Position numbers and translations under genes: made by a program. A stretch of 64,000 bases of DNA, taken from Eledone cirrhosa. Lineage: Eukaryota. Shown piece after piece: positions 1,865 to 26,839 of the stretch. Where the stretch lies: positions 8,246,001 to 8,310,000 of the forward strand of contig OZ024764.1 of NCBI GenBank assembly GCA_964016885.1, given 5' to 3'. Under the pieces are notes generated by a model. It searched no databases, was not told the origin of the DNA, and saw nothing but the letters and a program-made list of their open reading frames with translations. Position 1 is the stretch's first letter; every line of letters begins with the position of its first letter.

Positions 1865-2725
1865 CTCAGACCTGCCCTCTGTAGTACATACAACATTCCT
1901 CACTAGCTTTGCTGATGACAAAGGTAGCACAAACAATCAAAAACCTGACTGATGCTGCCCTTTCGCAACAAGATCTGGATGCCATATACAAATGGGCTGA
2001 GGACAAGAACATACAGTTTAATGCTGGAAAATGTCAAGCCCTATAATACCAACCTGCACACACAGCTACACCGGACCAGGAGGGATCAAAATCTATACGA
2101 GCCCTGGGAATAGACATGAGCAACAATGCATCTTTTTCTTCACACATCTTGAGGGTGGAGACAACTCGCTGGCTTGATGTTGAGGACTTTACAGACAAGT
2201 GACCTATGGAGGACATTTGTCCTTAGCTGCCTGGACTATTGCTTCCAGCTGTGGTCACCCCATAGTATCAAACTAACCACAGAGCTTGAGGCAATCCAAC
2301 GAAGCTACACCAAGAGGATTGCGATGGTAGGCTAAAAGAACTGAATCTCTACTCCTTGAAATGAAGACGAGAGATACACTGATATACATGTGGAAAATCC
2401 TGAAGGGACTAGCACCAACCCCCGGACAGGACGTCACTGAGTGGTGCCAAAGGTCCCGTCTTCCACATCTAGAATAAGGAGCAGATATTGCAATAGCCTG
2501 GGTTTCAAAGGCCCTCAAATCTTCAATAAGCTGCCAAGGAATTTGAGAGATCTGCATGATGTGGATGTTTTCAAGAAACGTCTTGAGCCCACAGCACGAA
2601 ACGAAGGTGACCTAAGGGCAGTAGCAACGAACTCCCTCTTTCACCAACGGCCAGCCAACACAGGCTGGAGATAGAATGTGTAGCAACAAGGGTGGTGCGC
2701 CAACCAAATGGCTGGAACAGATAAA
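1865..2725 (+). mobile_element. Decayed CR1/L2/Jockey-group LINE 3' fragment (RT C-terminus)
   Basis: FADD motif (tttgctgatgac ~1908), then QQDLDAIYKWAEDKNIQFNAGKC, CLDYCFQLWSP and NSLGFKGPQIFNKLPRNLR; many frameshifts. Confidence 0.8.
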
Positions 2726-3039
2726 ACAATATATATATATATATATACACATAAAATTCTTATGACCAAAGTGGATAGTTAGTGATTGATACTAATTACT
2801 AAAATCGAAGGTTTGCATTTTATTTCTTTATTTCCAGAAACAGATCAGCCTGTAACATATATGCTACCATCATGAAATAAGTATATATAATTGTTCTGTA
2901 CATATGTACAAAATACTAGTGGTATTTAAATTAATTTATATATAGAAACGGAATGAGAGCGAGGTAACACCTTATCTAGCTTCTTTATATTTCTATATTA
3001 AACATTTTTTAACCTCTAAATATGACTAATTTACTTGAC

Positions 3040-3185
3040 AGAATTGCGGCGGTGCACGTAGTTGTTCGGACTTCGTCGCCTACCTAGGTATGGCGAGACT
3101 ATTCTAAGTGTCTGAAGATCGGCTGCGGCAGCTGGGACTATTTGCAGGCCGGCCCGAGTCCTGAACCACGCGAACAATCGTTTTT
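3040..3185 (+). ncRNA. Candidate structured RNA/DNA module, copy 1 (function unknown)
   Basis: GC island with by-eye stems gttgttcg/cgaacaat, ggactt/gagtcc, tcgcc-tacc/ggta-tggcga; T5 at 3181-3185; three motifs shared with 17820-17982(-). Confidence 0.3.
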
Positions 3186-4518
3186 GCCGTAAATTTGATG
3201 AGAGTTATCTCCTTCTATATTGAGTTACTTCCCCCTGTATGAAACTCTTTTTTTATTTTGATTGACTTCTGGTTCTTTGAAAGAAAATAATTTTGGATAT
3301 TATAATAATGAAATTATTGTGTACAATTCCCAGCTGCACTACAACAAAAAATGGAATGTTTCAGGATAGGATTGAACCTCAGACCATGTTCACCACCGTC
3401 TATAATACCTACCACAGGGCCACGTCTTCATTTCATAGAAAGAGGTATGTACTGTTTTCTTTGCTCTATACGAGGGGTTCCCAAAGTGGGTTCCCGTGAA
3501 GCAAGGCCAGGGGTTTCCGTAAGGCGCAAGTTGAAGTTTAATATAAAAATAAAGACCAAGTTGTAACGTGTATGATCGGTATATAGTCGCCATATAAACA
3601 TGCAAAGAGTGTTACACTGCGGAGCTCTCAGCCAAATCGTTCAGTTGGGTTGTAGTATTCCATTATTAAGGGTGTACTGTGAGCACGTGTAATACTCAGA
3701 ATTATAACTTTTTACAATAAACTTGGGTATTTGAATCTCATTTGAATATTTAAGTTCTCTCCTAAAGGTAACATAGGTACCAAGTCTCACACGGTGAACA
3801 CTTGTATCCTGTATCAATAAACGTTTGCTCCTTGTCAACGAGTTTATTTTTGAGTTTTATTAAAATCATAAATGGCTGTGTAAACCCTTAAACTTTAAAA
3901 CAAAATTACAAACCAATTATGTGGTCTTTGAAGTTGCTAGAAATAGCAGGCATATCTTATACCCCCTACCACATTAAAAAATAGAAAGAACGAAAACGGG
4001 AGTAACTGGTTAATATTTATTGAAATATTCGAAGAGTTACTGCTTCGGACGTGATAAAAAGGAAATTATAGAGAATTTTAAATATTTCGAAAGCACAAGC
4101 AATCGTCAAGGACCTTTCCTTTCTTCCTGTGTTCGTGGCAGCTGAGTATCAACCATCCATAAATAATTTTTACCCGTTAAGAATCTCAATGGGGAAAATT
4201 TTCTTCAATTTCTGCCAGTATTACAAAACAAGGTTATCTTGTAGTTACCCGCGTTAAATTGTTTTTTTTTTTTTAAAGAAAGTCGGTAGTGTCGGCCCCC
4301 TGAACTTCATTTGTTTTCTAATTTGATAACTATGACTATGCATCAACGTGGTGATTTCAAAGTTTATTTATTTACACATGGTGTAGTGCCTTTATTGAAA
4401 TATTCGAAGAGTTACTGCTTCGGACGTGATAAAAAGGAAATTATATAAAGAATTTTAAATATTTCGAAAGCACAAGCAATCGTCAAGGACTTTATATACG
4501 AATTCCTTTCTTTCTGCA

Positions 4519-5463
4519 GTGGAAGGACAGCCACGAATCAAGTCAGCAGATGTTCTTGGAAGGGTCTACAGCGTCCATCCCACTCAGTTTGAGTGTTTCT
4601 GCCTAAGAATGCTCCTGTTTGAGGTTAGAGGACCACGGTCTTTCCAAGACCTGAGAACCATCAATGGCCATCAATGTTCCACCTACCGTTTGGCTTGCCA
4701 GCTGCGTGGTATGTTACACGATGACAGCCATTGGCACCTCACCCTGCAGGAAGCAGCAATTGCTAAAGTCCCTTCTCAGATACGCAAGCTTTTTGCTATT
4801 ATGCTGCACAACTGCGATCTCGCCGACCCTCTCGCAATGTGTAACAACCACCGCGAAGGTCTGGCTGAGGACATGCTCCACCGCACAAGCAGACACAATC
4901 CGAACATAACATACAATGTCGTTTTCAATGAGGCACTCATTGGCCTTGAAAACAGTGTCCTGGAGATTGGTGGTAGGCCTCTAAATCACTACAGCTTACC
5001 TGCTCCTGACAGAAGTGTCCAGAGGTCAACGTCTACAGAGCTTCTCCGCGAGACGAGCTACGAGATCAGTGCTCTTCGGGACTTCATTACTACCAACGAA
5101 CCTAAATTGGTCCATGACCAGCAACTGGCTTACAACACCATTGTTGATGATGTGACAAACAACAACGCTGGCCTCTTCTTCGTTGATGATCCAGGAGGCA
5201 CGGGAAAGACATTCGTCATCAACCTCTTACTTGCAACGGTCAGAAAGAACAGATGGATTGCACTGGCCATTGCTTCCTCTGGAATTACAGCGACCCTTCT
5301 CTCCGGAGGCCGTACCACCCATTCAGGTTTCAAAATCCCGCTGAACATTGTGAATATTGATACTGCAACTTGCAACATTCCACGAGGAAGTGGCCTGGGC
5401 GATCTCATCAAGCAGTGTCGCCTCATTGTCTGGGATGAATGCACTATGGCTCACAAAGCCTTT
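4519..5463 (+). mobile_element. Helitron Rep-helicase fragment (PIF1-family helicase, N-terminal half)
   Basis: GRVYSVHP..ECFCLRMLL..VRGPRSFQDLRT; Walker A PGGTGKT; ASSGITATLLSGGRTTHS; Walker B LIVWDEC. Preceded by pyrimidine tract + CAG (4505-4519). Truncated by an RTE. Confidence 0.92.
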
Positions 5464-6825
5464 GACAGAGTCCCCCCGTTCCATTATCTGGTGGGCTCTT
5501 AGAAAACTAGGTGTTGATGACTGGCTTGTGAGAGCTATACAAGCCATGTATAAAGAAACAGTCAGCAAGGTTAGAATTAACAGCGAATATAGTGAAGAGT
5601 TTATTGTAAAAGTTGGTGTTCATCAGGGCTCCGTTCTTAGCCCCCTACTATTTATTATTGCCCTTCAGGCTATAACAGTGGAGTTCAAGACCGGCTGCCC
5701 ATGGGAACTACTATACGCAGATGATCTAACGCTCATAGCTGAATCAATGGCTGAACTAGAGAAGAAATTCCAAACATGGAAGCATGGCCTAGAATCAAAA
5801 GGCCTTAAAATTAACCTGGCTAAGACTAAAGTTCTAGTTTGTAGAAAGGAAAATAGGGCACCGGTCCCATCCGGGAAATGGCTCTGCTTAGTGTGTAGGA
5901 AAGGAATAGACAGAAACTCCATTTTATGTCCCAAATGCAAAGTATGGGTGCATAAAAGATGTAGTGGGATCACAGGTAAGCTAACTAAGAATATAGATTT
6001 TATATGTGGCTGGTGCGCTGGTATAATAAGTAGCAGCAAATGCCCACAGAATACTAGCTCAATCCATTGCACAGATGGTTCTATAGAAATAGTGGACACC
6101 TTCCGTTACTTGGGTGACAAAATCAGCAGTGGGGGAGGGTGTTCTGAAAGTACAGTAGCTAGAGTCAGAACTGGATGGGAAAAGTTCAGAGAGCTTATAC
6201 CACTATTAGCCGCTAAAGGGTTCTCTCTAAAAATGAAAGGCAGGCTGTATGATGCCTGCATACGAACATCAATGTTACATGGCAGTGAGACCTGGGCATT
6301 GTGTGCAGAGGATATACGCAGACTGGAGAGAAACGAAGCTTGCACGCTCCGCTGGATGTGTAATAGTAATATACGTGAACGGCAAAGCATAAACGAACTA
6401 AGTGAGAAATTAGGAATAAGAGGGATCAGATGTTGTTTGACGACAGCTGTATAAAAAAGTGCAGGGCAATAAAAATAGACGGTAGCCACGGAGTAGGCAG
6501 ACCCAGAAAAACCTGGGACGACTTGATAAATTCTACCTCACACACTTACACCTCTCCAAGACAATGTCACTGGACCGAGATCTTTGGCGCTACACAGTAA
6601 TACAGAAGACCCGCCTTGCCTAAGTACAGAGTGAAACCTACTACAGTCAGTAGGCACCTCTAACAAAAATACACCACCACCCTATCCACACCACCACTTT
6701 TGATTTAAAGTTATGTTGGTACCACAACATCCAGTCCGAAACAAATGAGGTCGTGTAGGTGTCACGACAAAAAAACACAGTCCACGCTGTAATGTGGTCG
6801 TGTAGGTAACACGGTAAAATACATA
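5455..6825 (+). mobile_element. 5'-truncated RTE-clade LINE (RT C-half with PHD-like insert, 3' UTR)
   Basis: KAFDRVP, GVHQGSVLSPLLF, LYADD, FRYLG, LHGSETW, GRPRKTW. 3' UTR matches the copy at 45183-45600(-). Confidence 0.92.
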
Positions 6826-7146: not shown

Positions 7147-7680
7147 AATATATATATATATATTTAAAATATACTATATATATATATAATATACTATATA
7201 TATATATAATATACTATATATATATATAATATACTATATATATATATAATATACTATATATATATATAATATACTATATATATATATAATATACTATATA
7301 TATATATAATATACTATATATATATATAATATACTATATATATATATAATATACTATATATATATATAATATACTATATATATATATAATATACTATATA
7401 TATATATAATATACTATATATATATATAATATACTATATATATATATAATATACTATATATATATATAATATACTATATATATATATAATATACTATATA
7501 TATATAATATATATATAATATACTATATATATATAATATATATATAATATACTATATATATATAATATATATATAATATACTATATATATATAATATATA
7601 TATAATATATATATATATAATATACTATATATATGTATATATATATATATATATAGTATATATATATATATATATATTAT
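7147..7680. repeat. AT-rich micro/minisatellite, (ATACTATATATATATATAAT)n grading into (TA)n
   Basis: Perfect 20-bp period visible 7170-7500. Confidence 0.95.
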
Positions 7681-8187
7681 ATTTTAAATTTCATACACTT
7701 ATCATGTATGCGCAACCTTTGGTTTCGGGGTCCAGTTATGGCCACCACTATCTAGGATTGGCTGCTTCCTCAATTTCGTTACTTAATTTTATTAAGTAAT
7801 TAAATTATATAATTAAATAGAAATTTGCTTAATAAACTTTATTCCACATTAAAGAAAATAATTAAAAATTTTCACTGCAAAAATACGAAAACTTGACTGA
7901 GAATGTGTGGCTAACTTTGCAAGGTAACACGCACGTGTTGTAACGATGACCGGGAAATTTGAGTTTGACGGAACATAAAACCTTATTTTTTATATTAACA
8001 ATGTCTAAATATTTTTAATGGCAAGCCAAAAGATTGACGACTTTGCTGCAGGTAACAGTGAAACTAAGGTAGTGTAATATGTTCATTTATTAGTATTGTG
8101 TAATATTAAAATGTTATTCCCAGCTTTGTAGCTTTTGAGACTTTTGGTGGAGTCGGGTCGCTGACTGCGAGTTTCCTCTGCACTGGC

Positions 8188-8345
8188 GGCTCCCCTAATA
8201 GATGTAACTGGTGAGGGGCTTGGTTGTTCCAGCACCTCAGCCTCGCCTAATAGAGGTAACTGGTGAGGTGCTTGCTTGTTCCAGCACCTCAGCCTCCCCT
8301 ATTAGAGGTAACTGGTGAGGTGCGTGGTTGTTTCAGCAACTCAGT
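8188..8345. repeat. 52-bp tandem repeat, ~3 copies
   Basis: cctaatagaggtaactggtgaggtgcttggttgttccagcacctcagcctc; stops in all frames tested. Confidence 0.8.
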
Positions 8346-9124
8346 CTTCTGTCTCCTCAAACACATCTTCCAGCGGGTCCAAGAGTTGTTTTATGGATAT
8401 CTATATATACATATAGATGTATATGTATATATATAGATGTGTGCGTGTGTATATGTATATATATAAATTTGTGTTAGATAATTGTTGCTAAATATTACTT
8501 AAAAGCGTTGTAAATTAATTTCAGTTTTCAAAGCACTTTAACCCTCGGTATGTTCGTTCTACGAGGGTGCGTTACATATGAGGTTTGTCAGGTGTTTTAA
8601 CAGAAGGGTCTGCAGTCTGGTTGGTTGTTCAACAACACTACCCCTCCACATACAATAACATCTCTCTCTCTTTATATATATATAAACTAGTCTTAAATAA
8701 CCAGGTGGGTCAGGCCATTATAACGTGGAATCTTAGTTTATGTTGATGTATTCTGGGTAAACAGTTTGTTTTTAGTTCCCTTCATAATATCGTCATTAGA
8801 GGTAGGTGGGTTCAATTCCTGGACTGGGTTGTGTGTTGTGTTCTTGAGAAAACATTTTATTTCACGATGCTCCAGTATACTCAACTGTAGCGATGGACTA
8901 GCGCCCTGTCCAGGGTGTAGTCGTATATTCTTAGATGTTTCATGCCGGGGTAAGGACCGGCGTGATGAGTCCCCGAGCTTGGGACAGACTTTAGATATCA
9001 TCAACCATTTGAAAAGCCTTTTTTTTCTCAGACACCACCCCCGGGGTACCGTATTTCTAATGGAATACACAACCCATGTGCCTCAATATTGGAAAATAAT
9101 GGAAATATTAAATAATTTAATGAT

Positions 9125-9690
9125 TTCTACTTTAGGCACAAGGCTAATAATTTGGGGTGTGGGGGACGTTGATTAAATCAACATCAGTACATTACTGGTA
9201 CTTTATTTATCGACTCCAGTACACTACTGGTACTTTATTTATCAACCCAGTACACTACTGATACTTTATTTATCGATCCCGGTACATTACTGGTACTTTA
9301 TTTATCGACTGCAGTACATTACTGGTACTTTATTTATCGACTGCAGTACATTACTGGTACTTTATTTATCGACTGCAGTACATTACTGGTACTTTATTTA
9401 TCGACTGCAGTACATTACTGGTACTTTATTTATCGACTGCAGTACATTACTGGTACTTTATTTATCAACTCCAGTACATTACTGGTACTTTACTTATCGA
9501 TCTCAGTACATTACTGGTACTTTATTTATCGACCCCAGTACATTACTGGTACTTTATTTATCGACTACATAAGGATGAAAGGCAAAGCTAACCTCGGCGA
9601 GATTTGAATTCAGACTGTACAGGGCCGTAACTCTGCCGTAAAGCATATTGACCGACGCTCTACCGATACTGCCAATACACAGCCATGACT
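9125..9690 (-). mobile_element. tRNA-derived SINE (family B, Nin/Deu-like core) with internal 32-bp array
   Basis: Minus strand TGGCAGTATCGGTAGAGCG head and GCCTTTCATCCTT...GTCGATAAATAAAGTACCAG core; unit cagtacattactggtactttatttatcgactg x~12 at 9185-9567. Confidence 0.8.
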
Positions 9691-10482
9691 GAATTTAATA
9701 ATAAAACCACCTGACTATCGTTAACCTGTTGTGTGTAGGTCACTTAATCTGGGTGGAGATCACCTTTGTTGTTCTTCCTCTACCAGATCCAGCTGGAACT
9801 CCTCTCCACCTCCTCTGCTATAGTCTTTAGTACTTTGGTCTGTTCCACCCAGTTACTCAGAGATATTTCATGAGATTGTAGGCAGATATTTCTACCAACC
9901 CTCTCCCTCCAGCCTGTGGGGTGAGGACTGTGACAGGGAAACCTACTTTTTAAAGAACTTTCTCTCTCCTGTATGCCTGTCATTCTCGTAATCATAGCTG
10001 TTAACATATCGATTAACGGCACGACAACCTTCCCGCTCCGTAAGGGTAGGCCCTTCGTTTAGGAAGGATGTCATACGTTGTGACATTTTCTCAAGTGACA
10101 ACATTGTGTGCTCAGTGACCAGCCCAGGCTTTGCTGCTCGTCATGTCAAAGTATTGGCCACTCGTTGATATGTTTGTTATTGAGATTTTGGCAGTGGAGA
10201 CTTCCAGTGTTCTTGTCCCCACCACTTGACCAAATCCCCCTTTGCAAGACTATTGGAGTGGAGTTAGCTACCCACAAGTGTGAGCCCCGTGAGGTGCAGT
10301 GGCTGTTTCAGTATGTCTCCCTTGCCATCCTCCCTAGCTCCAGAACCACAAGACAGACTGACCCCCAAGTTTCATCTATGGTGCGGGCATGTAGAATATA
10401 TTTATTTAAGCACTATTGTTATTTTAATAAAAAATGAAAAACCTATGTGTTTGTTTTTTATTCACTAAATTAATGTTGAAAA

Positions 10483-11620
10483 TCTATATATATAAAACTG
10501 AGGATGTCTCTGTGTGTGTGAGTTTGAATCTCTAAAACTCGAGAAGCACCCAACCAACTGTTTTCAAACTTTATACATGTAATACTTACGTTTCAGGGAG
10601 TGTTCTGAGCAAAAGAATTTTCAAATTTTCAATGCCCTAGGGACCGCATTAGGCGATTTAGCGATCTCTCTCTATAATTTTTAGTCTTTCTCTTTTTAGA
10701 TAGATACATACATATAACGTCGTGCCCTTATAATATCTGGCTGTCTGCATTACGTCACTTCCCACAATTCCGTCTGCGTCCAGAACGCGCCCTTATAATA
10801 TCTGACTGTATGTCTGCTGCCTCCGGTTATTCAGCCACCCTTACTCAAGACAAATCTTACACTCAATTCCCCAAACAGTTCGTAAGTGCACACAACTTCT
10901 TACTCACGTTTGAAGCAACAGTGTTGATTACTTACGTACCACCAGACCCTTACTTCTTTGCCAGCCGTGGTTGTGGCAATACTAAGCTTAGCTAAGGCGG
11001 TTATATATTTCTCACAACACTAAAAATGAAAGCCGGTAACTATGTATCAGTTAGTCTCTTCTTCATACCGTGAGCAAAGAAAATACAACTTCTAGTGGAG
11101 TGAGTGAAATAAAGTCGATCCTGCTGCGATTCAAAAATCAGGTTTGCAGGTTATATATTTCACACAACACTAAAAATTAAAGCCGGTAAAGAAAAACATC
11201 GCTATAATAGCTTCAGTTTGCACAGTGTTGCTTACTTACGTGCCTTTACGAGAACAAATGTTACTCAGGGAGCACATAACAAAATTCAACTTTTTTATCC
11301 TCTAGGGCCCGCATTTGGTGAAAAACTTCATTTTTTCAGCTTTTTAGAGACGTTACGTCTAGCCGATTGTCCTGAAATTTCAAGGCATATTATGCACATA
11401 AAAAAAAATTCATTTTCTTGATCCCCTAGGGCCCACATTAGGTGAAAACTTGCATTTTTCCTGCTTCATCGAGAAAATCTTAAAGATTATCCAGCCATCA
11501 GAGTATTCGGTTTATTTTCTTTACATATTGTCCAGGCATGCAGTTTTCCCCCAATTAGGTCTGTCGGCGACCCGCATTCCATAATACCTTATCCCGTGCA
11601 ACGCCGGGTACCACTGCTAG
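10483..11620 (+). mobile_element. Non-autonomous Helitron
   Basis: 5' TC, 3' CTAG, subterminal hairpin cccgtgcaacgccggg, inserted between A and T without TSD. Empty site gttgaaaa|taaacaat present in paralogous units at ~12561 and ~14780. Confidence 0.92.
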
Positions 11621-13789
11621 TAAACAATAAAATGCAGGGATTTAATAATAAAATTCAACATGTTTCTTTTTTATTCAGATGAAATATATTTAGTGTATTT
11701 TGTTTTAAAACTCTTCCTAGTTTTCCCTGTAGCAGCTCTGTTGTCTTTAGCAAATATTTCGGTGGATTTAAATGTTTCTTTCAAGATTGAGATCAAAGAC
11801 CGTAAATTGTTGATTCAATTCTTCAGCAGTGCTAAATATTTTCTGAAACTGTAATCACCATTTAATATTGTTAATTAGTCGTTGATTGTCTTGTTGCCTT
11901 AAATCCCCAAAGTATGTGGACGTTCTCTGGTCTGTCGTTTATCCCGTAAAGCGAATGAGAGTACAAGACTCCCTCCTGGACAGGCCACCAGTCCATCACA
12001 GGGTTAACCCCTCCCCCACATATTACTGGTACTCATGTTCAGCTGAATTATACTGGTCTGTATGTCTCATTCTCGTAATCATAGCTGTTAACAGATCGAT
12101 TAATGGCATGACAACCTTCCCGCTCCGTAAGGGTAGGCCCCTTCGGTTAGGAAGGATGACATACGTTGTGACATTTTTTCAAGTGACAACATTGTGTGCT
12201 CAGTGACCAACCCAGGCTTTGCTGCTCGTCATGTCAAAGTATTGGCCACTCTTTGATATGTTTGTGATTGAGATTTTGGCAATGGAGACTTCCAGTGTTC
12301 TTGGCCCCCGCCTGACCAAATTCCCCTTTGCAAGGCTATCGGAGCAGAGTTAGCTACCCACAAGTGTGAGTGCCGTGAGGTGCAGTGGCTGTTTCCGCAT
12401 GTCGCCCTTGCCATCCTCCCTAGCTCCAGAACCACAAGACAGACTGACCCTTAAGTTTCATCTATGGTGCGGGCATGTAGAATATATTTATTTAAGCACT
12501 ATTGTTATTTTAATAAAAAATGAAAAACCTATGTGTTTGTTTTTTATTCACAAAATTAATGTTGAAAATAAACAATAAAATGCAGGGATTTAATAATAAA
12601 ATTCAACATGTTTCTTTTTTATTCACAGGAAATATATTTAATGTATTTTGTTTTAAAACTCTTCCTAGTTTTCCCTGTAGCAGCTCTGTTGTCTTTAGCA
12701 AATATTTCGGTGGATTTAAATGTTTCTTTCAAGATTGAGATCAAAGACCGTAAATTGTTGATTCAATTCTTCAGCAGTGCTAAATATTTTCTGAAACTGT
12801 AATCACCATTTAATATTGTTAATTAGTCGTTGATTGTCTTGTTGCCTTAAATCCCCAAAGTATGTGGAAGTTCTCTCCCGTAAAGCGAATGACAGTACAA
12901 GGCTCCCTCCTGGACAGACCACCAGTCTGTCACAGGGTTAACCCCCCCCACATATTACTGGTACTCATGTTCAGCTGAATTATACTGGTCGTAAAAACTA
13001 AAACAGTTGTAAATTCATTTCAGTTTTCCGATCACTTTCTTCCTCTGTATGTCCATCATTGGTTAACTGTCGATCATTGTTTGTAAAGATCGATATCGAC
13101 TAACTTGTGAGTTTATTTCACCATCATTAAGTCCCAGGTACGATCACACCCCATGAACTGTATAGAGGTCTGTCAGCTGTAATTCAAATGGCCAGTCTTA
13201 TAACACTGAATTACGCATGTGTTCATAATTAACTGCTAGTGCTGTAACATGGCCTGGTTCTTTAGAGGGTACTGTAGCTTGGCCAGTCTTATAACACCAA
13301 GATACTTGGAACATGCGCACTGGGATTGTGAATCTTGCGCTTGCACATTCAACTCCATCCAAAACAAGAAAAAAAGAATGGCCGTCAGTTTGTAGAATGT
13401 TACAAGCTTTACAGAAACTCTTGCTAAATGGTTTAGTTCCCTTCATAATATCGTCATTAGAGGTAGGTGGGATCCATTCCTGGACTGCGTGGTCTTCTTG
13501 AGAAAACATTTTATTTCACGTTGCTCCAGTTTACTCAGCTGTAGCTGGGGGAGTTAACCTTGCGATGGACTGGCGCCCTGTCCAGGGGGTGGTCTTATAT
13601 TCTTAGATGTTTCATGCCATGGGTAAGGACCGGCGTGATGAGCCTCCGAGCTGGGGACAGACTTTAGATATCAACCATTTGAACAGCCTTTTTTTTTTCT
13701 TAGACGTCACCCCTCGGGGTACCGTATGTCTAGTGGAATACACAGCCCATGGGTCTAAATATTGGAAAATTTTGAAGGAATTTAATAAT

Positions 13790-14020
13790 TATTTCTACTT
13801 TAGACACAAGGCTAATAAATTGGGGTGTGGAGGAAGTCGATTAAATAAACCTCCAGTACATTACTGGTACATTATTTATCAACCCCAATGCATTACTGGT
13901 ACTTTATTTATCAACCGTGTAAGGGTGAAAGGCAAAGCTAACCTCGACGAGATTTGAACTCAGACCGTAACTCTGTCCCGTGAAACATGTCCGACGCTCT
14001 ACCGATACTGCCAATCCACC
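13790..14020 (-). mobile_element. SINE family B copy (paralogue of 9125-9690, ~2 units of the 32-bp repeat)
   Basis: Same head and core as 9125-9690. Confidence 0.75.
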
Positions 14021-16680
14021 TCCGTGAAGGAATTTAATAATAAAACCACCTGGCTCGTTAACCTGTTGTGTGTGTGTGGGTCACTTAATCTGGATGGAGA
14101 TCACCTTTGTTGTTCTTCCTCTACCAGATCCAGCTGGAACTCCTCTCCACCTCCTCTGCTATTGTCTTTAGTACTTTGGTCCTGTTCCACCCAGTTACTC
14201 AGAGATATTTCATGAGATTGTAGGCCGATATTTCTACCAACCCTCTCCCTTAATTACAGGTACAGTCATACACTGTTGTGTACAGAATTAAATGTATGAC
14301 AGGGAAACCTACTTTTTAAAGAACTTTCTCCTGTATGTCTGACATTCTCGTAATCATAGCTGAAGTATTTGATCAGTGTTAACAGATCGATATCGATTAA
14401 CGGCATGACAGCCTTCCCACTCTGTAAGGTTACGATGTCATAAATTATGACATTTTCTCAAGAGGCCAAGCTGTCCAAGTATCGACCACTTTTGATATGT
14501 TTGTGATTGGGAGTGGAGACATCCAGTGTTCTTGCTCCCCTCCCGACTATACCCCCACACACGGTTAACGGAGGGGAGTTAGCTACCCACAAGTGAGGTG
14601 CAGTGGCTGTTTCAGTATGTCTCCCTTGCCATCCTCCCTAGCTCCAGAACCACAAGACAGACTGACCCTTAAGTTTCATCTATGGTGGTGACATGTAGAA
14701 TATATTTATTTAAGCACTATTGTTATTTTAATAAAAAATGAAAAACCTATGTGTTTGTTTTTTTATTCACAAAATTAATGTTGAAAATAAACAATAAAAT
14801 GTTTCTTTCAAGGTTTAGATCAAAGACCGTAAATTGTTGATTCAATTCTTCAGCACTGCTAAATATTTTCGTAAAATACTATCCCGTAAAGCGAATGGCC
14901 GTACAACACTGGGTTATTACTGTTACTCATGTTCAGCTGAATTATACTGGTCGTAAAAACTAAAACAGTTGTAAATTAATTTCAGTTTCTCGCTCACTCT
15001 TTTCCTCTGTATGTCCATCATTGGTTAACTGTCGATCAGTGTTTGTAAAGATCGATATCGACTAACTTGTGAGTTTATTTCGCCATCATTAAGTCTCAAG
15101 TTCGATCACACCCCATGTGAAACTGGGTAGACAGAAACTGTATAGAAGAAGTCTGTCAGCTGTAATTCAAATGGCCAGTCTTATATCGCTGAATCTCCCT
15201 GAGAATTACGTTTGTTCATAATTATAGATTAACTTCTAGTGCTGTAGCATGGCCAGGTTGTTTAGAAGGTACTGTAGCATGGCCAATATACTTGGAACAT
15301 GCTAATCTCGCGCTTGCGCATTCAACTTCTAAACAAGAAAAAAACAAATGGCCGTCAGTTTGTAGAATGTTACAAGCTTTACAGAAACTCTCGCTAAATG
15401 GTTTAGCAATGGACAATAGCAGCTTTCTGAAAGGTAACGTAGATTTTTATATTTTGTTGAGATATTTTTGTAAATCTTTCCCTCTTAGTCTCCTTCGTAT
15501 CATCTACTATTTACACCTGCCTAGTTCTTCTCTTGTTAACGTAATCTTAATGAGATACACACTCACCTGTTTCAATACATTGTGAATAGAAAAAAATTTA
15601 AATTCATATTTTTTATTAATAAGTAGTGTAGTTTAAAAATTGTTCCTACTTCTTCCTGGGGGTAGTTCCTTTGTCTTTATCAAATCCTTCTGTCGACTCT
15701 TTCATGGTAGTTTCGACTGTTGATTTGGGGGACTTTCCAAACGCTACCACCTCTTGCAATCTCTCCGAGGTACACACAATAAGTCCAGCTGTTCACCATC
15801 TCTCTTTCTCCCATTTGACTTTGTCGATGGTGGAAATCTTATATTCCGTCTTGTAATGTCGTACATTTAATTCTATACACAACAGTGTATGATGTGAAAC
15901 TTCCTTATTTCTTCCCATAGTGGTGACTGTTGGACTTACGATCATAATGTGATGGTTCCATTCCTGGATCGTGTTATGTTCTTGAGAAAAACACTTCATT
16001 ATACTTAGCTGAGTCTGAGTACCAGCAGTATCTTGGGGTTTATCCCTGCCATAGACTGGCGTCCTAACCAATTTTCCCTTCGTAAGCAATCATTTTAAAG
16101 TTTTGTTTTAGTCTTAATAGTCCAAGAACAGTGTTGATTATTTTGTCAGACACTGGACCATCTGTACTTGTTGGTAATACCTCCAGTGCGTTGGTGTCCA
16201 CTCTAATAGTTTACCTATTGTCTCTGAGGAGACGAGGCCAGCCCATCTATAAGTTCATTGCTGTTGAATCCAGGTTTGTTGCTCTTCATTGTACGATTTG
16301 CTCCACTGTCGTCTGGGCCGGCCCCGAATAGTCCTTGTCTTGATCCTCGTTAGACATAAACGATATCCCGTTAAAACAATGATATGTGTACGTTACACAT
16401 ACATATAAATAGCTTTTATTTCAATTAATTATGAACATCAATAATAAATAACAACTTCGTAAAATAGAATTCAATGTGTTTTTATTGACAAAAACGTATT
16501 TAAATACACGAGAAATATTGTTTATTTCTTCTCTTGTGTTCCTTCTTTACAGATGTCCAGCCAACAAGTGTTCTGTAGAATGAAATAAATTTGTAATAAA
16601 ACAATTGTATCATATACTTTATTGTGTTGTTTATTTATTCCTGGTATGAAGGTAAAATATATTTTAAACAGCCTCATCAA

Positions 16681-17590
16681 GGTTTCGAATCCAGCAGTCG
16701 CTCCAAAAATGGTTGTCCAATAAACAATGTAGACGGTGTCTTCAATGGTTCGAATCTAAGGAAAGAAAAGTAAGTACCAAGGGAATGAAGAGTAAGTATC
16801 AATAAAGAATGTAGAAAGTATCATTGAGGGTTCGAATCCAACAGCCGTCTAAGAACGTATTTACAATCAAGGGTGATAAGTATCAAAAATGTAATAAGAA
16901 CCTTCAAGTATGTAAAGAAAGTATCTCAGGTTCGAATCCAACAGTCGTCTAAGAATGTAGTAACCACCAAGGGTTCTAAGTATCAAGAATGTAAATAAAA
17001 TATCTCGGGTTCGAATCCAACTGTCTTCCAAGAATCTAATTAACCATCAAGGGTTCTAAGTATCAAAAATGTAATAAGAACCTTAAAGTATGTAAAGAGA
17101 GTATCTCAGGTTCGAATCCAACTGTCTTCCAAGAATGTAAAGAAAGTATCAAAGGTTCGAATCTAAGTAAGACAAGAATGTAGTAAGAAGCATCAAGGGT
17201 TAGAATCTAAGTCAAGAATGTAGTAAGAAGATTCTAAGGTTCGAATCCAACTGTCTTCCAAGAATGTAAGTGAAATTGTGGGTTCTAAAAATCTAAACAG
17301 TCTCTTTATATAGAAACTAAGTTGAAGGTTCGAATCCAACTGTCTTGTGAGATTGTGGGTTCTAAGAATCTAAGTCACTCTATATAGAAACTAAGTTGAA
17401 GGTTCGAATCCAACTGTCTTCCAAGAATGTAAGTGAAATTGTGGGTTTTAAGAATCTAAGTTAAGAAGGTTCGAATCCAACTGTCTTCCAAGAATGTAAG
17501 TGAGATTGTGGGTTCTAAGAATCTAAGTCTCTCTATATAGAAACTAAGTTAAGAAAGTTCAAATCCAACTGTCTTCCAAGAATGTAATTA
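16681..17590 (+). repeat. Irregular array built around GGTTCGAATCC (tRNA B-box-like)
   Basis: ~13 motif occurrences (about 16681, 16747, 16829, 16929, 17008, 17109, 17154, 17198, 17238, 17327, 17401, 17468, 17557); a piece recurs at 21843-22008. Confidence 0.8.
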
Positions 17591-17819
17591 ACCTCCAAGG
17601 TTCTTCTAATATGTAAATGAAACTTCAAAAGTGTAATTAAGATTCTCTATTATATTTTCTAAAAAAAAATTTCTTCTAATATGCAAATGAGCTTCTAATA
17701 TGTAAATGAAGCTTTAAGAGTAATTAAGATTCTTTCTATATATAATAAGATTCTTTCTAATACAATTCTTCTAATATGTAAATGAACTTCAAGCTCATTT
17801 GCATATTAGATGAAATTTG

Positions 17820-17982
17820 AAAAAGAATTCTTCACGGTGGTCAGGGACGGGCCTTGCATCTATGTGCCGGCCCCGAATAGTCCCAGGCCGATGCAGTCGT
17901 ACGCCACTACGAATCGAACGCCAGCCAGGGGGACTGGTAGTCTGAGACGCAGATCGCACGCCACCGCGAAGGCCGCAATTCT
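17820..17982 (-). ncRNA. Candidate structured RNA/DNA module, copy 2 (function unknown)
   Basis: Minus strand AGAATTgcggcCTTCGCGGTGG...CCACCGTGAAG-AATTCT-TTTT terminal stem; inner stems tgcatc/gatgca and tcgta/tacga; motifs shared with 3040-3185. Confidence 0.3.
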
Positions 17983-18829
17983 ACTGAGTTAAATAGTGGT
18001 ACTTATGGCTACTTTGGAAACATTTTGATCAAAAAAAAATTAATATATGCAAACGGAACAAAGGGAAGTAATTCTGGATTCAAATATTTTTTTCATAAGA
18101 CAATTATTAATGCATTGGTGGTGCTACGAAGACGGGGTTTTCGATGTCTGCCAACGGATTGTTTAGGGAGTTTAATTATGGGGTTTTATCGAAGTTTGAT
18201 AGTGACCCTTTCTACAATTCAGGACCCTTTAATGTCTACAAGATATTGCGATAGAGACGCAAGTTAGACGTGAGAGGGTAGCCAGCTTTGTTTACATTCG
18301 AGCGATAGCCATAGAAGATTATACAGGTTAGACATGTCTTTTAACCGCTTTTTTGGCGACCTTATGTACATACACTACATGCCTTTGGCCCCCTAAGCGA
18401 GCGTTAGCCACAGAGGACATTGAGCCTTAAAGAGGGGAGGGCATTTAACTTGGGTGTTCTCAGTCCTGGAAGGAGACTGAAGTGTGATACGCACAACACT
18501 GTACAGTCACCAAAGGAGGCAGGAACTGACATATGTACAGTCACCCAACGATCCATAAGACAATAAACATCAGTTTTCGATTGACAACCATAACTACACC
18601 CCGTAACAACACATATAGCACCAGCAACGTATTAATAATTTTCTAATGAAAAATATATTCACACCTGAATTACTTCCATTTATTCCGTTTACATATATTT
18701 TAACAACGAATAATTAAAAATATAGATACAAATGTGACTTAATACGTACCTTGATGGACTCCGGGTTTATGGGTGTTGCCACAGGGGAGGGGTAAAGTGT
18801 ACCATTGACAGATGACCCCAGTTCTTGGG

Positions 18830-21800
18830 ATGTTAAGAGATAGGCCTAACCTTTTATAAGCCGCCGTATGGAGGGACAGCTACCACAATATACTGTATAT
18901 CAGGGGCATTAAAATACAGACCCATTGTTATATTACATGTAACTGTGGGCCATGTGGGGCAACAGCTAACACTATAACAGGGACATTAAAAGAGAGACCC
19001 ACCCATAGATGTAACTGTGGGATGTAGAGAGGAGCCAGCTACCACAATATACTGTATATGAAGGACATTAAAAGACAGAGACAAACAGACCTTATATTAG
19101 ATGTAACGGCTGATGTATGGAGGGACAGCTACCGCAATATACTCTATATGTGGGACGTTAAAAGACAAACACGCCCTTATATTAGAAGGGACAGCTACCA
19201 CAATACACTGTATATCAGGTGTTAAAAGACAGACCCATCTAAAGTTATAACTATAGACCGTATGATCGACAGGGAAGTCAGCAACAGACTGGCAAAGGTG
19301 AGCAGTGCATTTGGTAGACTTTACTAACGATGGAAGATTAAACACGAAGCTTAACTCCTAAATACGCTGGGCAGGGCACGTCGCTAGGATGAAGGACCAT
19401 CGCCTGCCCAGGATCAATCTCAACTCTCTATAGCCGTTCGTGACAGGAGGACCAAATATCAAGAACCTGTGCTGGAGTGTAACGAGAAAGGTTCGCAGGT
19501 ATGGCTATTTCCAGTCGAGGTGGGCTGCAGGAGATTCTTGGCTCAGTGGAATGACAGGGCGAGAGAAGAAGGCTGTAGTTCGCAGGATGAAGGTGTTAGC
19601 AGAAAAGACCTTCTGTTGGCTTTGGAGCAGGAGAGGGGGGATAAGCTGCAAGCTTGGCGATAATAGGTAGTAATTTGGCCACTGCTGACCCACCAGCGTC
19701 CCAATGAACGTAGGACACGGCTGGGCGACATCAGCACCTGAAGGGGAATGAATGTGAGGCATCTTCTTGAAGACGTAATTATGCCTATATATATCATCGT
19801 TTGTCTCATTTAGAGGCAAGTTGGGCCGAGTGACCCTGTCTCAGACCCAACATTATATTAGATGTAACTTGTTGGCTGCAGGGACGTTATAAGACAGACA
19901 CATCCTTATATTAGATGTAATTGTGGGATGTACGGAGGGGTTGCTTCTACTGTATATCAGGGACGTTAAAAGACAGGTTCACCGTTTTATAAGCTACAAC
20001 TGTGGGCCGTCTAGAGGGACAGCTACCACAATATACTGGATATAAGGGGCGTTAAAAGACAAACACACCCTTAGAAGTAATAGATGCACAGTTATCACAA
20101 TATGTGACCAATACATACCTCGATGGATTCCAGATTTAAGGGTGTGGTCAAAGTGGAGGGGACGGTAATGTGTGCCATTGACACATGAACCCAGTTCTTG
20201 GGATGTTAAGAGACAGGCCTAACCTTTTATAAGCTGCAACTGTGGGCCAAACGGAGCGAGAGACAGACCCAAACTTAGATGTAACAGCTGCCGTGTAGAG
20301 GGACGTCTACCACAATACACTGTATATGAGGGGGTGTTAAAAGACAGACCATCTTTAGATATAACTATAGACCGTATGGAGGGACAGCTACCACAATACT
20401 CTGTGTATAAGGGACGTTAACAGACAGACCCATCTTTAGATATAACTATAGCCCGTATAGAGGGGTAGTTATTACAACATACTGTATATAAGGGACATTA
20501 AAAGACAGATCCATAGATGTAATTGTGGGATGTACAGAGGGGCTGCTACATAACTATAGCCCGTATGGGGGGTAGTTATTACAACATACTGTATATAAGG
20601 GACGTTAAAAGACAGATCCATAGATGTAATTGTGGGATGTACAGAGGGGCTGCTACCACTGTATATCAGGGACGTTATAAGACAGGTCCACCTTTTTATA
20701 AGCTGCAGCTGTGGGCCGTATGGAGTTAGAGACAGACCCAACATTATATCAGATGTAATTAGGGGCCGTATGGAGGGACAGCTACACACAACACTTCCAC
20801 TGAAATATGTACTGGCTGTACAGTCATAAAGGAGGCAAGAACTGACGTCTGTACAGTCACCCAACGATCCACAAGACAGTCACCATCGGTTTTCGATTGA
20901 CAACCATAACTACACCCCGTAACAACACATATAGCACCAGCAACGTATTAACAATTTTCTAATGAAAAATATATTCACACCTGAATTACTTCCATTTATT
21001 CCGTTTACATATATTATTTCATCAACGAATAATTACAAATGTGACTATACGTACCTTGATGGACTCCGGGTTTATGGGTGTTGCCACAGGGGAGGGGTAA
21101 AGTGTACCATTGACAGATGACCCCAGTTCTTGGGATGTTAAGATACAGGCCTAACCTTTTATAAGCCGCCGTATGGAGGGACAGCTACCACAATATACTG
21201 TATATCAGGGGCATGAAAATAGACCCATTGTTATATTACATGTAACTGTGGGCCGTGTGGGGGAACAGCTAACACAATATACTGTATATAAGGGACATTA
21301 AAAGACAGAGACAAACAGACCTTATATTAGATGTAACGGCTGATGTATGGAGGGACAGCTACCGCAATATACTCTATATGTGGGGCGTTAAAAGACAAAC
21401 ACACCCTTACACTAGAAGGGACAGCTACCACAATATACTGTATATCAGGTGTTAAAAGACAGACCCATCTCAAGTTATAACTATAGACCGTATGGAGGGG
21501 TAGCTATTACAATATACTGTATATAAGAGACGTTAAAAGACAGACACATCCTTACATTAGATGTAATTGTGGGTTGTAACTATAGACAGACAGACCCAAC
21601 ATTATATTAGATGTAACAGTGGGCCGTATGGAGGGACAGCTACCACAATATACTGTATAGTAGGGACGTTAAAAGACAGCCCTATCTTTAGATATAACTA
21701 TATACTGTATGGAGAGGTAGCTATTACAATCTACTGTTTATCAGGGACAGACACATTATATTAGATGTAATTACCACAATCTACTGTATATTTGGGACGT

Positions 21801-22550
21801 TAAAAGACAGACACATCCTTATATTAGATGTAATTGGGGGTTGTCTAAGAATGTAGTAACCATCAAGGGTCCTAAGTATCAAGAATGTAAAGGAAGTATC
21901 TAAGGTTCGAATCCAACTGTCTTCCAAGAATCTTATTAACCATCAAGGGTTCTAAGTATCAAAAATGTAGTAAGAACGTTCAAGTATATAAAGAAAGTAT
22001 CTCAGGTTGTATGGACAGACAGACCTAACATTATATTAGATGTAACTGTGGGCCGTTATATATACCTCAATATCTCATCAGATATGTGCAAAAACGCAGC
22101 ATGTAACTTTAATTACACACTGACCTAACATATGTAGGGGGCAGCGATCGAGTAATCGCACTGTAGACCCTATCGGTAAAACACCGAGATGGGGACATAC
22201 CCTAGATGCAGGGTACAATCATAATGACAGGGGCCCGGCTCTGCCTCGATATTTCATCAGATATGCAAGTTTATATGTGCATAAAGACAGACCCATTGTT
22301 ATATTACATGTAATTGTGGGCCGTGTGGGGGAACAGCTAACACTGTATAACAGGGACGTTAAAAGAGAGGCCCACCCATAGATGTAACTGTGGGATGTAG
22401 AGAGGAGCAGCTAACACAATATACTGTATATGAGGGACATTAAAATTAGACCAATCCTTACATGAAACAGCTGCCGTATAGAGCGACAGCTATCATAATA
22501 TACTGTAAATGAGGGGCGTTAAAAGACAGGCCCACTCTTTTACCACAGAG
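18830..22550. repeat. Degenerate ~70-75 bp tandem repeat field with block duplications
   Basis: Unit gccgtatggagggacagctaccacaatatactgtatatcagggacgttaaaagacagacccatc.ttagatgtaactgtgg; 18500-19260 ~ 20815-21495. Confidence 0.8.
19285..19780 (+). mobile_element. RTE (BovB-like) 3' fragment
   Basis: CGCTGGGCAGGGCACGTCGCTAGGATG = RWAGHVARMKDHRLPRI; heavily deleted. Confidence 0.55.
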
Positions 22551-22884
22551 AAAGAGTCTTGCTGCTCTCTGGACTGTAAGCTTCAAGGAGATGGAAGTAT
22601 TCCACCAGCCTGCACTTCAGGAAGAGTACCACCCTCCCTATATCAACATTTACCCCCCAGCGAGAGGGTTTAAATATCTTTGTTTACAGTCGAGCGATAG
22701 CCATAGAAGGTTATACAGGTGAGACGTCTTTTTAACCGCTTTTTTTTTTTTTTTTTGCGACCTTATGTAAATAAACTCCATGTCTTTGGCCCTCTGGCCA
22801 CAGAGAAGATCTTACAAGCCAGACAGAGCAGTGAACCTTCGAGAAGGAGACTGAGGTGTGACACACAATACTTCCACTGAAATA

Positions 22885-25860
22885 TGTACAGTCACCAAAG
22901 GAGGTATAGACAGACATGTGTACTGCCTGTACAGTCACCAAAGGAGGTGTAGACAGACATGTGTACTGCCTGTACAGTCACCAAAGGAGAGATAGACAGA
23001 CATGTGTACTGCCTGTACAGTCACCAAAGGAGAGATAGACAGACATGTGTACTGCCTGTACAGTCACCAAAGGAGAGATAGACAGACATGTGTACTGCCT
23101 GTACAGTCACCAAAGGAGAGATAGACAGGCATGTGTACTGCCTGTACAGTCACCAAAGGAGGTATAGACAGACATGTGTACTGCCTGTACAGTCACCAAA
23201 GGAGGTGTAGACAGACATGTGTACTGCCTGTACAGTCACCAAAGGAGAGATAGACAGACATGTGTACTGCCTGTACAGTCACCAAAGGAGAGATAGACAG
23301 ACATGTGTACTGCCTGTACAGTCACCAAAGGAGGTGTAGACAGACATGTGTACTGCCTGTACAGTCACCAAAGGAGGTGTAGACAGACATGTGTACTGCC
23401 TGTACAGTCACCAAAGGAGGTGTAGACAGACATGTGTACTGCCTGTACAGTCACCAAAGGAGAGATAGACAGACATGTGTACTGCCTGTACAGTCACCAA
23501 AGGAGGTATAGACAGACATGTGTACTGCCTGTACAGTCACCAAAGGAGGTGTAGACAGACATGTGTACTGCCTGTACAGTCACCAAAGGAGAGATAGACA
23601 GACAGACATGTGTACTGCCTGTACAGTCACCAAAGGAGAGAGACAGACAGACATATGTACTGCCTGTACAGTCACCAAAGGAGGTATAGACAGACATGTG
23701 TACTGCCTGTACAGTGACCAAACGAGGTGTAGACAGACATATGTACTGCCTGTACAGTCACCAAAGGAGGTATAGACAGGCATGTGTACTGCCTGTACAG
23801 TCACCAAAGGAGGTATAGACAGACATGTGTACTGCCTGTACAGTCACCAAAGGAGGTATAGACAGGCATGTGTACTGCCTGTACAGTCACCAAAGGAGGT
23901 ATAGACAGACAGACATGTGTACTGCCTGTACAGTCATCAAAGGTGAGATGGACAGACATGTGTACTGCCTGTACAGTCATCAAAGGTGAGATGGACAGAC
24001 ATGTGTACTGCCTGTACAGTCACCAAAGGAGGTGTAGACAGACATGTGTACTGCCTGTACAGTCACCAAAGGAGGTGTAGACAGACATGTGTACTGCCTG
24101 TACAGTCACCAAAGGAGAGATAGACAGACATGAGTACTGCCTGTACAGTCACTAAAGGAGGTGTAGACAGACATATGTACTGCCTGTACAGTCACCAAAG
24201 GAGAGATAGACAGACATGTGTACTGCCTGTACAGTCACCAAAGGAGAGATAGACAGACATGTGTACTGCCTGTACAGTCACCAAATGAGGTATAGACAGA
24301 CATGTGTACTGCCTGTACAGTCACCAAAGGAGAGATAGACAGACATGTGTACTGCCTGTACAGTCACCAAAGGAGGTGTAGACAGACATGTGTACTGCCT
24401 GTACAGTCACCAAAGGAGGTGTAGACAGACATGTGTACTGCCTGTACAGTCACCAAAGGAGAGATGGACAGACATGTGTACTGCCTGTACAGTCACCAAA
24501 GGAGAGATAGACAGACATGTGTACTGCCTGTACAGTCACCAAAGGAGAGATAGACAGACATGTGTACTGCCTGTACAGTCACCAAATGAGGTATAGACAG
24601 ACATGTGTACTGCCTGTACAGTCACCAAAGGAGAGATAGACAGACATGTGTACTGCCTGTACAGTCACCAAAGGAGGTGTAGACAGACATGTGTACTGCC
24701 TGTACAGTCACCAAAGGAGGTGTAGACAGACATGTGTACTGCCTGTACAGTCACCAAAGGAGCTATAGACAGACATGTGTACTGCCTGTACAGTCACCAA
24801 AGGAGGTATAGACAGACAGACATGTGTACTGCCTGTACAGTCACCAAAGGAGGTGTAGACAGACATATGTACTGCGTGTACAGTCACCAAAGGAGAGATA
24901 GACATGTGTACTGCCTGTACAGTCACCAAAGGAGGTGTAGACAGACATGTGTACTGCCTGTACAGTCACCAAAGGAGGTGTAGACAGACATGTGTACTGC
25001 CTGTACAGTCACCAAAGGTGGTATAGACAGACATGTGTACTGCCTGTACAGTCACCAAAGGAGAGATAGACAGACGCCTGTACAGTGACCAAACGAGGTG
25101 TAGACAGACATATGTACTGCCTGTACAGTCACCAAATGAGGTATAGACAGACATGTGTACTGCCTGTACAGTCACCAAAGGAGGTATAGACAGACATGTG
25201 TACTGCCTGTACAGTCACCAAAGGAGGTGTAGACAAACATGTGTACTGCCTGTACAGTCACCAAAGGAGGTGTAGACAGACATGTGTACTGCCTGTACAG
25301 TCACCAAAGGAGAGATAGACAGACATGTGTACTGCCTGTACAGTCACCAAAGGAGGTGTAGACAGACATGTGTACTGCCTGTACAGTCACCAAAGGAGAG
25401 ATAGACAGACGCCTGTACAGTGACCAAACGAGGTGTAGACAGACATATGTACTGCCTGTACAGTCACCAAATGAGGTATAGACAGACATGTGTACTGCCT
25501 GTACAGTCACCAAAGGAGGTGTAGACAGACATATGTACTGCCTCTACAGTCACCAAAGGAGAGATAGAGAGACATGTGTACTGCCTGTACAGTCACCAAA
25601 GGAGGTATAGACAGACATGTGTACTGCCTGTACAGTCACCAAAGGAGGTGTAGACAGACATGTGTACTGCCTGTACAGTCACCAAAGGAGGTATAGACAG
25701 ACATATGTACTGCCTGTACAGTCACCAAATGAGGTGTAGACAGACATGTGTACTGCCTGTACAGTCACCAAAGGAGGTGTAGACAGACATGTGTACTGCC
25801 TGTACAGTCACCAAATGAGATAGGGTTGACATATGTACTGCCTGTACAGTCACCAAATGA
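22885..25860. repeat. 43-bp minisatellite, ~69 copies
   Basis: tgtacagtcaccaaaggaggtgtagacagacatgtgtactgcc; variation concentrated in the gtgt/gtat/agat triplet region. Confidence 0.97.
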
Positions 25861-26839
25861 ACCACAATTGAAGAACAAGACAGTCACCATCAGTTTTCGA
25901 TTGACAACCATAACCACACCCCGTAACAATACATATATATCACCACATGACCAGCAATGTATTAACAATTTTCAAATGAAAAATATATTCACACCTGAAT
26001 TACTTCCATTTATGCCGTTTACATATATTATTTTGTCAACAAATAATTAAAAATACTAGCACAAGACCCACCCTATGGGTGGTTTTCTGCTAGCCTGTGT
26101 AGTGTGTATATTGATATTATACACAAGTATATATACATGTAAATATGATACATCAAACAGTAATTGACAATATACACAGAAATTGAACCAAACCTGTTAC
26201 ACTGTCTTCTGTAATCCAGGATATATTTAAAAAAAGACGACATTATATATAAACTGCAGGAGAAAATTAGCGACTGAAATATATGTGATTATAAGTGTTA
26301 TAATATAACTGTTTCTATTTTTGGCACAAGGTCAGCAATTACCCAGTACATTACTGGTACTTTATTTTATTGACCTCGTAAGGATGAAAGGCAAAGTTCA
26401 CCTTGGCCGCTAACAGGAAGTGTTGACATTTGATAATTTTAAAGAAGTGAATGTTTAAATAAGCTATAAAATATATTTAATCAACAGCCACGAAATTTAG
26501 TACATCAATTATGTAATATTCATTCATTATTTATTCAAAGTAATCCAACTTCTTTTACAAACGGGGTAAAAAAATATATTCTGGGCGCAATCCCGCAGAC
26601 CTTCCTTTATTATAGTTAAGATAACTACTAGTATTTTGTACATATATACAGAACAATTAATATATACTTATTTCATGATGGTAACATATGTTACAGGCTG
26701 ATCTGTTTCTGGAAATCAGATGCAAACCTTCGATTTTAGCCCATAACAGGTTTAAGATCCCATTAAGGGTGAAAGCAGCGATTCTTTAATCTGTTATTTT
26801 AATAAATATATATAAAATTGTATATGCACATATATATAA

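Follow-up and report, generated by a model that had tools for sequence, protein, structure and literature searches.

A multicopy family of folded modules in an octopod genome: candidate Pol III small RNA genes in foldback-like units

To our knowledge, few structured Pol III RNA families are described beyond the standard housekeeping set. The lineage-specific examples (snaR, BC200 and the viral VA, EBER and BocaSR RNAs) belong to primates and their viruses. Foldback-type DNA transposons such as FB, Galileo and Tetris have long inverted arms, tandem subrepeats and a variable non-coding interior, and we are aware of no case in which they carry genes for structured Pol III RNAs. The snaR (small NF90-associated) RNAs are about 117 nt long and Alu-derived; in the part of the snaR report cited here, they are lineage-restricted, multicopy structured Pol III RNAs of great apes with several subtypes, and duplication of DNA has carried their genes, flanks included, into mosaic units (PMC3045588). 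The corresponding part of the BocaSR report describes a 140-nt Pol III RNA with a VA-like fold that is needed for viral DNA replication, and VA, EBER and BocaSR share the arrangement of an RNA gene carried by a DNA replicon (PMC8242256).

We analysed a window of 64,000 nucleotides from the octopod Eledone cirrhosa (contig OZ024764.1, positions 8,246,001 to 8,310,000), in which two GC-rich modules had been proposed to encode a structured RNA. Compared with the cited parts of the snaR report, the family to which these modules belong is likewise multicopy, has several subtypes and has spread by DNA duplication with its flanks. Unlike the Alu-derived, ~117-nt snaR RNAs, its members are predicted to be 150-195 nt long, have no SRP RNA likeness, carry an upstream motif shared with U6 genes and form convergent pairs in units with inverted arms. 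As far as the cited part of the BocaSR report goes, the family resembles VA RNA, the EBERs and BocaSR in size, in its internal A- and B-box-like motifs and, in topology only, in combining a terminal stem, an apical stem, a central domain and a U-run. It differs from them in that no viral protein was found in the octopod units, and neither an Rfam match nor a relative on viral contigs was found for the modules. The units share long inverted arms, tandem subrepeats and a variable non-coding interior with foldback transposons; no fixed terminus, target duplication or transposase was found in them. The family has the upstream motif and TATA layout of U6, and its predicted Pol III class is that of vault RNA, 7SK, SRP RNA and U6. 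By sequence, most copies have promoter-like elements of a Pol III small RNA gene and a T-run at the 3' end with none inside. It is best read as a family that would work like the snaR- and VA-type Pol III RNAs, by analogy, yet is a member of neither group.

The modules and their immediate surroundings in the window are listed below.

3040 to 3185, plus strand: damaged module of subtype A1 with three internal deletions, from its fold z-score, alignment to an intact copy and a match to a B-type covariance model (E=4e-5)
17820 to 17982, minus strand: intact module of subtype B1 with a predicted Pol III RNA of about 155-163 nt, from its fold (z=-2.18) and identical loci elsewhere
16317 to 16334, minus strand: relic of a further module copy, an 18-nt exact match to hairpin P4
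2735 to 3039, plus strand: upstream block common to A-type copies, with a TATA-like site, by block comparison
3186 to 3310, plus strand: downstream block common to A-type copies, by block comparison

The upstream block at 2735 to 3039 contains an inverted pair of promoter-like motifs that is partly deleted in the window. Sister units hold longer module relics at the place corresponding to 16317 to 16334.

Seven motifs had been claimed for both modules, and a position check found all of them, in the same order.

AGAATTGCGGC: 3040 (plus) and 17982 (minus)
CTGGGACTATT: 3132 (plus) and 17886 (minus)
GGCCGGC: 3147 (plus) and 17872 (minus)
CCTGA(A)CCAC: 3160 (plus) and 17845 (minus)
GAA.AAT: 3172 (plus) and 17833 (minus)
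T5: 3181 (plus) and 17824 (minus)
AAATTT.AT: 3191 (plus) and 17818 (minus)

Motif sharing between the two copies is far above chance. The last motif, AAATTT.AT, is present at both copies but is not conserved across the family. The modules had also been described as not simply alignable, which is wrong: their local alignment scores 142, whereas 1000 shuffled versions averaged 68.8 and never exceeded 101.5. Homology can be followed from about 50 nt upstream of the start first given for the modules.

The two copies differ in integrity. Comparison of their folds with shuffled sequences, a check put forward with the original prediction, favours only one of them. The copy at 17982 folds with z=-2.18 (6 of 200 shuffles are equally stable), and the terminal stem proposed for it appears in the predicted fold with pair probabilities of 0.99-1.0. 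The copy at 3040 is no better than its shuffles (z=+0.29; 108/200), and the gttgttcg/cgaacaat end pairing attributed to it is not part of the predicted fold. Alignment to an intact relative shows that this copy is missing blocks of 10, 21 and 11 nt, the first of which held the 5' strand of the true terminal stem; the pairing proposed for 3040 is therefore not that of the family, and the argument that the two copies have different stems leans on a damaged copy. A covariance model built only from B copies detects the 3040 copy at E=4e-5, these E-values being rough. The same model scores the window's B1 copy at 190 bits, by construction, and five further B1 loci on C25 are identical to this copy over 201 bp.

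The two window modules are copies of one structured family. Searching the 3.0-Gb genome with each module returned 40 scored matches per module, and 99 places match an 18-nt pattern around the leader exactly, while its reversed control matches nowhere. Merging the module and leader-pattern matches gives at least 143 distinct loci, a lower bound that rests on these matches. The loci sit on C6-C27 and on three small contigs; judged from match coordinates, none of the 143 lies on C1-C5 or C28, which together comprise at least 1.26 Gb. Five subtypes (B1, B2, A1, A2 and A3) are each largely limited to particular chromosomes, and many copies among the 57 listed are damaged. The B-only covariance model recovered 5/5 of the A-type copies given to it (E 1.5e-9 to 4e-5) and nothing in U6, SRP or nine viral or metagenome loci. 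Upstream flanks of 100-450 nt accompany nearly every copy, which implies that copies move as DNA.

Intact copies begin with an invariant leader. Next come the terminal stem (P1), which differs in sequence between subtypes, and a long hairpin (P2) that stacks on it; a very small P3, a hairpin with a bulge (P4) and the T-run complete the module. The main elements in the window's B1 copy are as follows.

17961 to 17971, minus strand: terminal stem P1, 5' strand, with pair probabilities of 0.99-1.0
17830 to 17840, minus strand: terminal stem P1, 3' strand, from fold prediction and pairing counts
17898 to 17960, minus strand: long irregular hairpin P2, stacked on P1, its outer 12 pairs being paired in 99.5% of cells
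17844 to 17884, minus strand: bulged hairpin P4 (GGGAC/GTCCC, TATTC bulge, GGGCC/GGCCC), 100% of cells paired

Of 33 copies that were picked by eye as mostly intact among the 57 listed, 28 fold with z<=-2 (range -0.85 to -5.51). Across 17 B copies, 98.8% of 663 cells pair, compared with 36-44% when the partners are slid as a control. Three pairs are changed on both sides, each possibly through a single event, a count matched in 20/500 shuffles. P1 is paired in 98.4% of cells and has one two-sided change; P4 has one change from G-C to A-U. The original prediction placed TGGGACTATT in a loop, whereas GGGAC is one strand of a stem that shows a single two-sided change, and the bulge consists of TATT(C) alone. 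Parsimony on the tree gives 22 changes in 78 paired columns and 58 in 72 unpaired columns, so that paired columns change about threefold less than unpaired ones. The non-Watson-Crick pairs comprise 10 G-U, 0 A-C and 4 of other types; since the same strand was used to predict the structure, the G-U count is to some extent circular. A terminal stem between the 5' and 3' ends is predicted in 10/10 representatives of the five subtypes, from differing sequences and only partially in one of them, and the sense strand has the better RNA z-score than the antisense strand in 9/9 comparisons, sometimes narrowly. RNAalifold did not recover the fold from a joint alignment of A and B copies, in which the stems are out of register, and with 10 A copies it missed the terminal stem and returned a covariation term of only -0.03. 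At the level of the family, the proposal of a structured RNA under selection on its fold, ending in a Pol III-type T-run, is supported.

Promoter-like elements were compared with the U6 genes of the same genome, which have a TATA element at about -30 and an octamer at -76 to -78, a position where a PSE would usually be expected. A motif, TTAYYTCCCTT, lies at -265 to -288 upstream of all three distinct U6 loci (L163, L164 and L165) and does not occur in 59.3 kb of window background. In slightly relaxed form (TTAYYTCVCYT) it precedes 60 of the 79 distinct module copies (mean in shuffles 0.23), and in 53 of those 60 it sits at -79 to -91. It also lies downstream of 39/79 copies and is absent upstream of the 7SK locus, of one of two SRP loci and of both vault loci. 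We regard it as a candidate Pol III upstream element for octopods. The corresponding elements of the window's B1 copy are listed here; the labels A box, B box and octamer follow what we take to be the consensus sequences.

18061 to 18071, minus strand: U6-shared motif TTAYYTCVCYT, by motif scan
18047 to 18054, minus strand: octamer variant, by motif scan
18002 to 18007, minus strand: TATA-like box CATAAG (TATAAG in other subtypes), 25 nt before the leader
17911 to 17919, minus strand: B-box-like GTTCGATTC on the 3' side of P2, by motif scan
17820 to 17824, minus strand: T5 run, predicted Pol III terminator, by T-run scan
16747 to 17804, no strand assigned: AT-rich block of tandem repeats on the downstream side of B1; it holds 10 B-box-like GGTTCGAATC sites and six octamer-like ones

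At -25 from the leader, 34/79 copies have TATAA and 35/79 have CATAA (69/79 combined). A B-box-like core occurs in 64/79 copies, 41/79 having the strict form GTTCRANNC, and internal A-box-like motifs are also present. The first TTTT falls 145-196 nt from the leader in 65/79 copies. At -76, B1 has the U6-type octamer in reversed and imperfect form, and the other subtypes tested lack it at that position. The repeat block downstream of B1 contains 10 of the window's 11 GGTTCGAATC-type sites.

A conserved fold and a motif shared with U6 suggest Pol III small RNA genes, and a Pol III RNA gene is the simplest account of the fold, upstream motif, TATA-like site, B-box-like core and T-run together. 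From these sequence features, the modules are probably genes read by Pol III into an RNA of 150-195 nt. A hybrid promoter would recruit Pol III through the U6-shared motif at about -80 to -90, the TATA-like box at -25 and the internal A- and B-box-like motifs. Transcription would begin in the AGAATTGCGG leader, where we infer from U6-like spacing a start near the G of GCGG, and would end at the T-run. In the folded RNA, the terminal stem would stack on the long irregular hairpin, and a bulged hairpin would project to the side.

Neighbouring copies no more than 20 kb apart form 17 convergent pairs, 12 tandem pairs and 1 divergent pair (convergent versus divergent, p=1.4e-4), and the window's pair at 3040 and 17982 is one of the 17. 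Mixed cassettes of A and B modules have 1.4-4 kb of interior in common with one another. Palindromes of 15-18 kb and ~90-95% identity, centred between two facing modules, were observed at C12:47.079-47.094 Mb and C22:9.030-9.048 Mb. The larger features of the window are these.

7660 to 26055, no strand assigned: non-coding mosaic unit round B1, common to sister loci in shuffled blocks, by block comparison
1986 to 2923, plus strand: left arm of a long inverted repeat, a decayed piece that we take to be LINE-like from its translation and a motif, with the A-type upstream block; 83% identical to 26624-27622
26624 to 27622, minus strand: right arm of the same inverted repeat, its module missing; 83% identical to 1986-2923

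Parts of this inverted repeat reach 95-97% identity. Sister units have inverted arms of ~0.85-1.1 kb that end in 15/30-bp tandem repeats and lie 12-27 kb apart; the arms are 92% identical in two sister units. Paired arms at 8 of the 10 places examined enclose a module and at 2 hold none. The window's own unit has only interior pieces of this arm type. The inverted arms make the unit foldback-like, an unusual setting. Within the unit interiors, no codon-position bias was seen in 29 and 42 aligned pieces, and the units contain no Pfam family and no Atlas match; in a search for viral families, they gave only one weak 12-residue match.

An inner part of the inverted arm (L072:7600-7720, minus strand) has GCGCATGCGC and AAAATGGC motifs, which we take to be NRF1- and YY1-like, followed by opposed tracts resembling poly(A) signals. 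This part looks like a Pol II promoter without a gene, and a partial copy of it lies at 15239-15595 in the window.

The original prediction offered an element-encoded non-coding RNA as one possibility, and it is the best reading of the family: the fold, the motifs and the T-run speak for it, while the lack of fixed termini in the pairs and at the arm ends inspected speaks against it. The recurrence of the arms, the facing pairs and the coexistence of scattered young copies with many dead ones suggest selection of the fold through the spread of the unit itself. If the modules are Pol III RNA genes, we lean towards an RNA that serves its element. The joint proposal, in which non-coding foldback-like units carry the genes with them as they spread and would in turn be served by the genes, is put forward tentatively and at somewhat less than an even chance. 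Its most speculative step is that the RNA may bind double-stranded-RNA proteins, by analogy with VA, EBER, BocaSR and snaR RNAs; such binding would help the unit to escape silencing or to be copied. In its fullest form, which we consider doubtful and which again argues from analogy, the unit would be a new kind of selfish, protein-free DNA element, in which VA-like Pol III RNA genes face each other in pairs and which also contains arrays of sites for Pol III factors. The RNA would be needed for copying or would act as a decoy of host double-stranded-RNA proteins such as ADAR or Dicer.

The main rival, on balance unlikely, is a host multigene family of Pol III RNAs that undergoes birth and death as snaR does, serves the animal and has been moved by passive duplication, so that arms and pairs are mere products of segmental or inverted duplication. 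The boundaries fit this account, since the outer ones are variable and no fixed terminus or target duplication was seen in six pairs or at the inspected arm ends, which may be eroded. Several convergent pairs are plain palindromic duplications that take in unrelated LINE and satellite flanks, and the subtypes are largely chromosome-specific. The module with its upstream 100-200 nt is also the least diverse part of the copies (pi of 0.003-0.048 in B1, against 0.10-0.32 downstream), a comparison in which the apparent conservation of the module is inflated because copies were selected by module likeness. In the cited part of the snaR report, snaR genes spread in a similar way (PMC3045588). Three observations tell against a host family: many copies are damaged; the arm type with terminal 15/30-bp repeats recurs round modules on five chromosomes; and copies are scattered megabases apart, unlike the tandem U6, SRP and vault arrays of the same genome.

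We think it improbable that the fold acts as single-stranded DNA, as an untranscribed origin or recombination signal of a non-autonomous DNA element. In its favour, DNA parameters also make sense copies more stable than their shuffles (z -0.66 to -3.99). Invariance of the unpaired AGTAGAATTGCGGC leader points the same way, though that motif served to pick the copies, and convergent placement in inverted arms would suit element ends. The modules, however, are set back from the ends of the shared blocks by hundreds of bases to kilobases, and a DNA signal leaves unexplained the U6-shared motif at its fixed distance, the TATA-like site, the B-box-like core and the T-run after the stem.

Very improbable is descent from an old SINE-like retroposon head whose copies later multiplied by DNA duplication. 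It would account for the internal A- and B-box-like motifs and the high copy number, but retroposition of a Pol III transcript would not copy the shared upstream flanks of 100-450 nt; moreover, no LINE-like tail follows the module, and the head is not derived from tRNA, to which the modules have no likeness, or from 7SL, seven representatives scoring at shuffle level against this genome's SRP RNA (p 0.30-0.89). A self-cleaving ribozyme of an undescribed class, another early suggestion, can draw on the multibranch fold and the invariant single-stranded stretches and is hardly credible given that there is no Rfam match, no hammerhead core on either strand of 79 copies and no conserved pseudoknot evident on non-systematic inspection of the fold.

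Known relatives of the modules were sought. Rfam gave 0 matches at gathering score in the 64-kb window and none on the modules of 10 loci at E<=10; the original prediction had not recognised the family either. Descent from SRP RNA was rejected on the shuffle comparison above. Identity with 7SK, vault, SRP or U6 RNA was rejected too, because none matches the modules and each has genes of its own elsewhere. Patterns run against viral and metagenome sequences gave 0, 1 and 8 exact matches, none of the nine scoring with the covariance model. No description of the family appeared in the literature covered (titles and abstract openings, with subscription journals outside the scope). The family is apparently uncatalogued; Dfam, Repbase and other cephalopod genomes were outside the comparison, and it may therefore already be annotated as an unknown repeat.

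Two possible partners of the units, and a link to clusters of C2H2 zinc fingers, were rejected. The sole match in the genome to protein-primed DNA polymerase B (PF03175; C2:326476114-326476635, L214) lies on C2, which has none of the 143 modules, and this removes a Polinton/Maverick partner. A Helitron partner fails because helicase pieces occur at only 3 places in the 1.41 Mb of loci examined, and the one in the window has no DNA in common with other loci. The zinc-finger link fails because, among the linker matches listed (the first 100 of 171, for one exact linker variant only), none is on C13, C15 or C20-C24, although 80 of the 143 modules are found there.

With more than 140 copies in five subtypes, the family would add a cephalopod example of a structured Pol III RNA family, cephalopods being known for extensive RNA editing, and it offers a ready set for covariation analysis. 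Should the RNA indeed serve the DNA unit that carries it, the unit would be an unusual mobile element.

Other loci seen in the course of this work include 11 Rfam vault-RNA matches above cut-off, in a tandem cluster at C3:221183987-221251257 (L235-L240). They are of two kinds, 87 and 93 nt long, each followed by a T-run, and are candidate octopod vault RNA genes. A single 7SK match of 45 bits with a U6-like TATA lies at C2:194684573-194684851 (L193). U6 genes form a tandem array with ~1.8-kb spacing at C19:31.78-31.84 Mb, and SRP RNA genes form one with ~1.4-kb spacing at C12:42.10-42.13 Mb. Features that would fit an octopod genome are extensive arrays of C2H2 zinc fingers, pieces of RTE-like LINEs and satellites of 70-90 bp. 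In the window, a Helitron PIF1 helicase fragment at 4459-6819 is interrupted by part of an RTE-like LINE that has RT and PHD domains, and satellites of 80-82 bp occupy 34782-44057 (116 copies) and 30424-31404 (12 copies). The satellite unit also occurs within nearby LINE-like sequence, from which it may derive.
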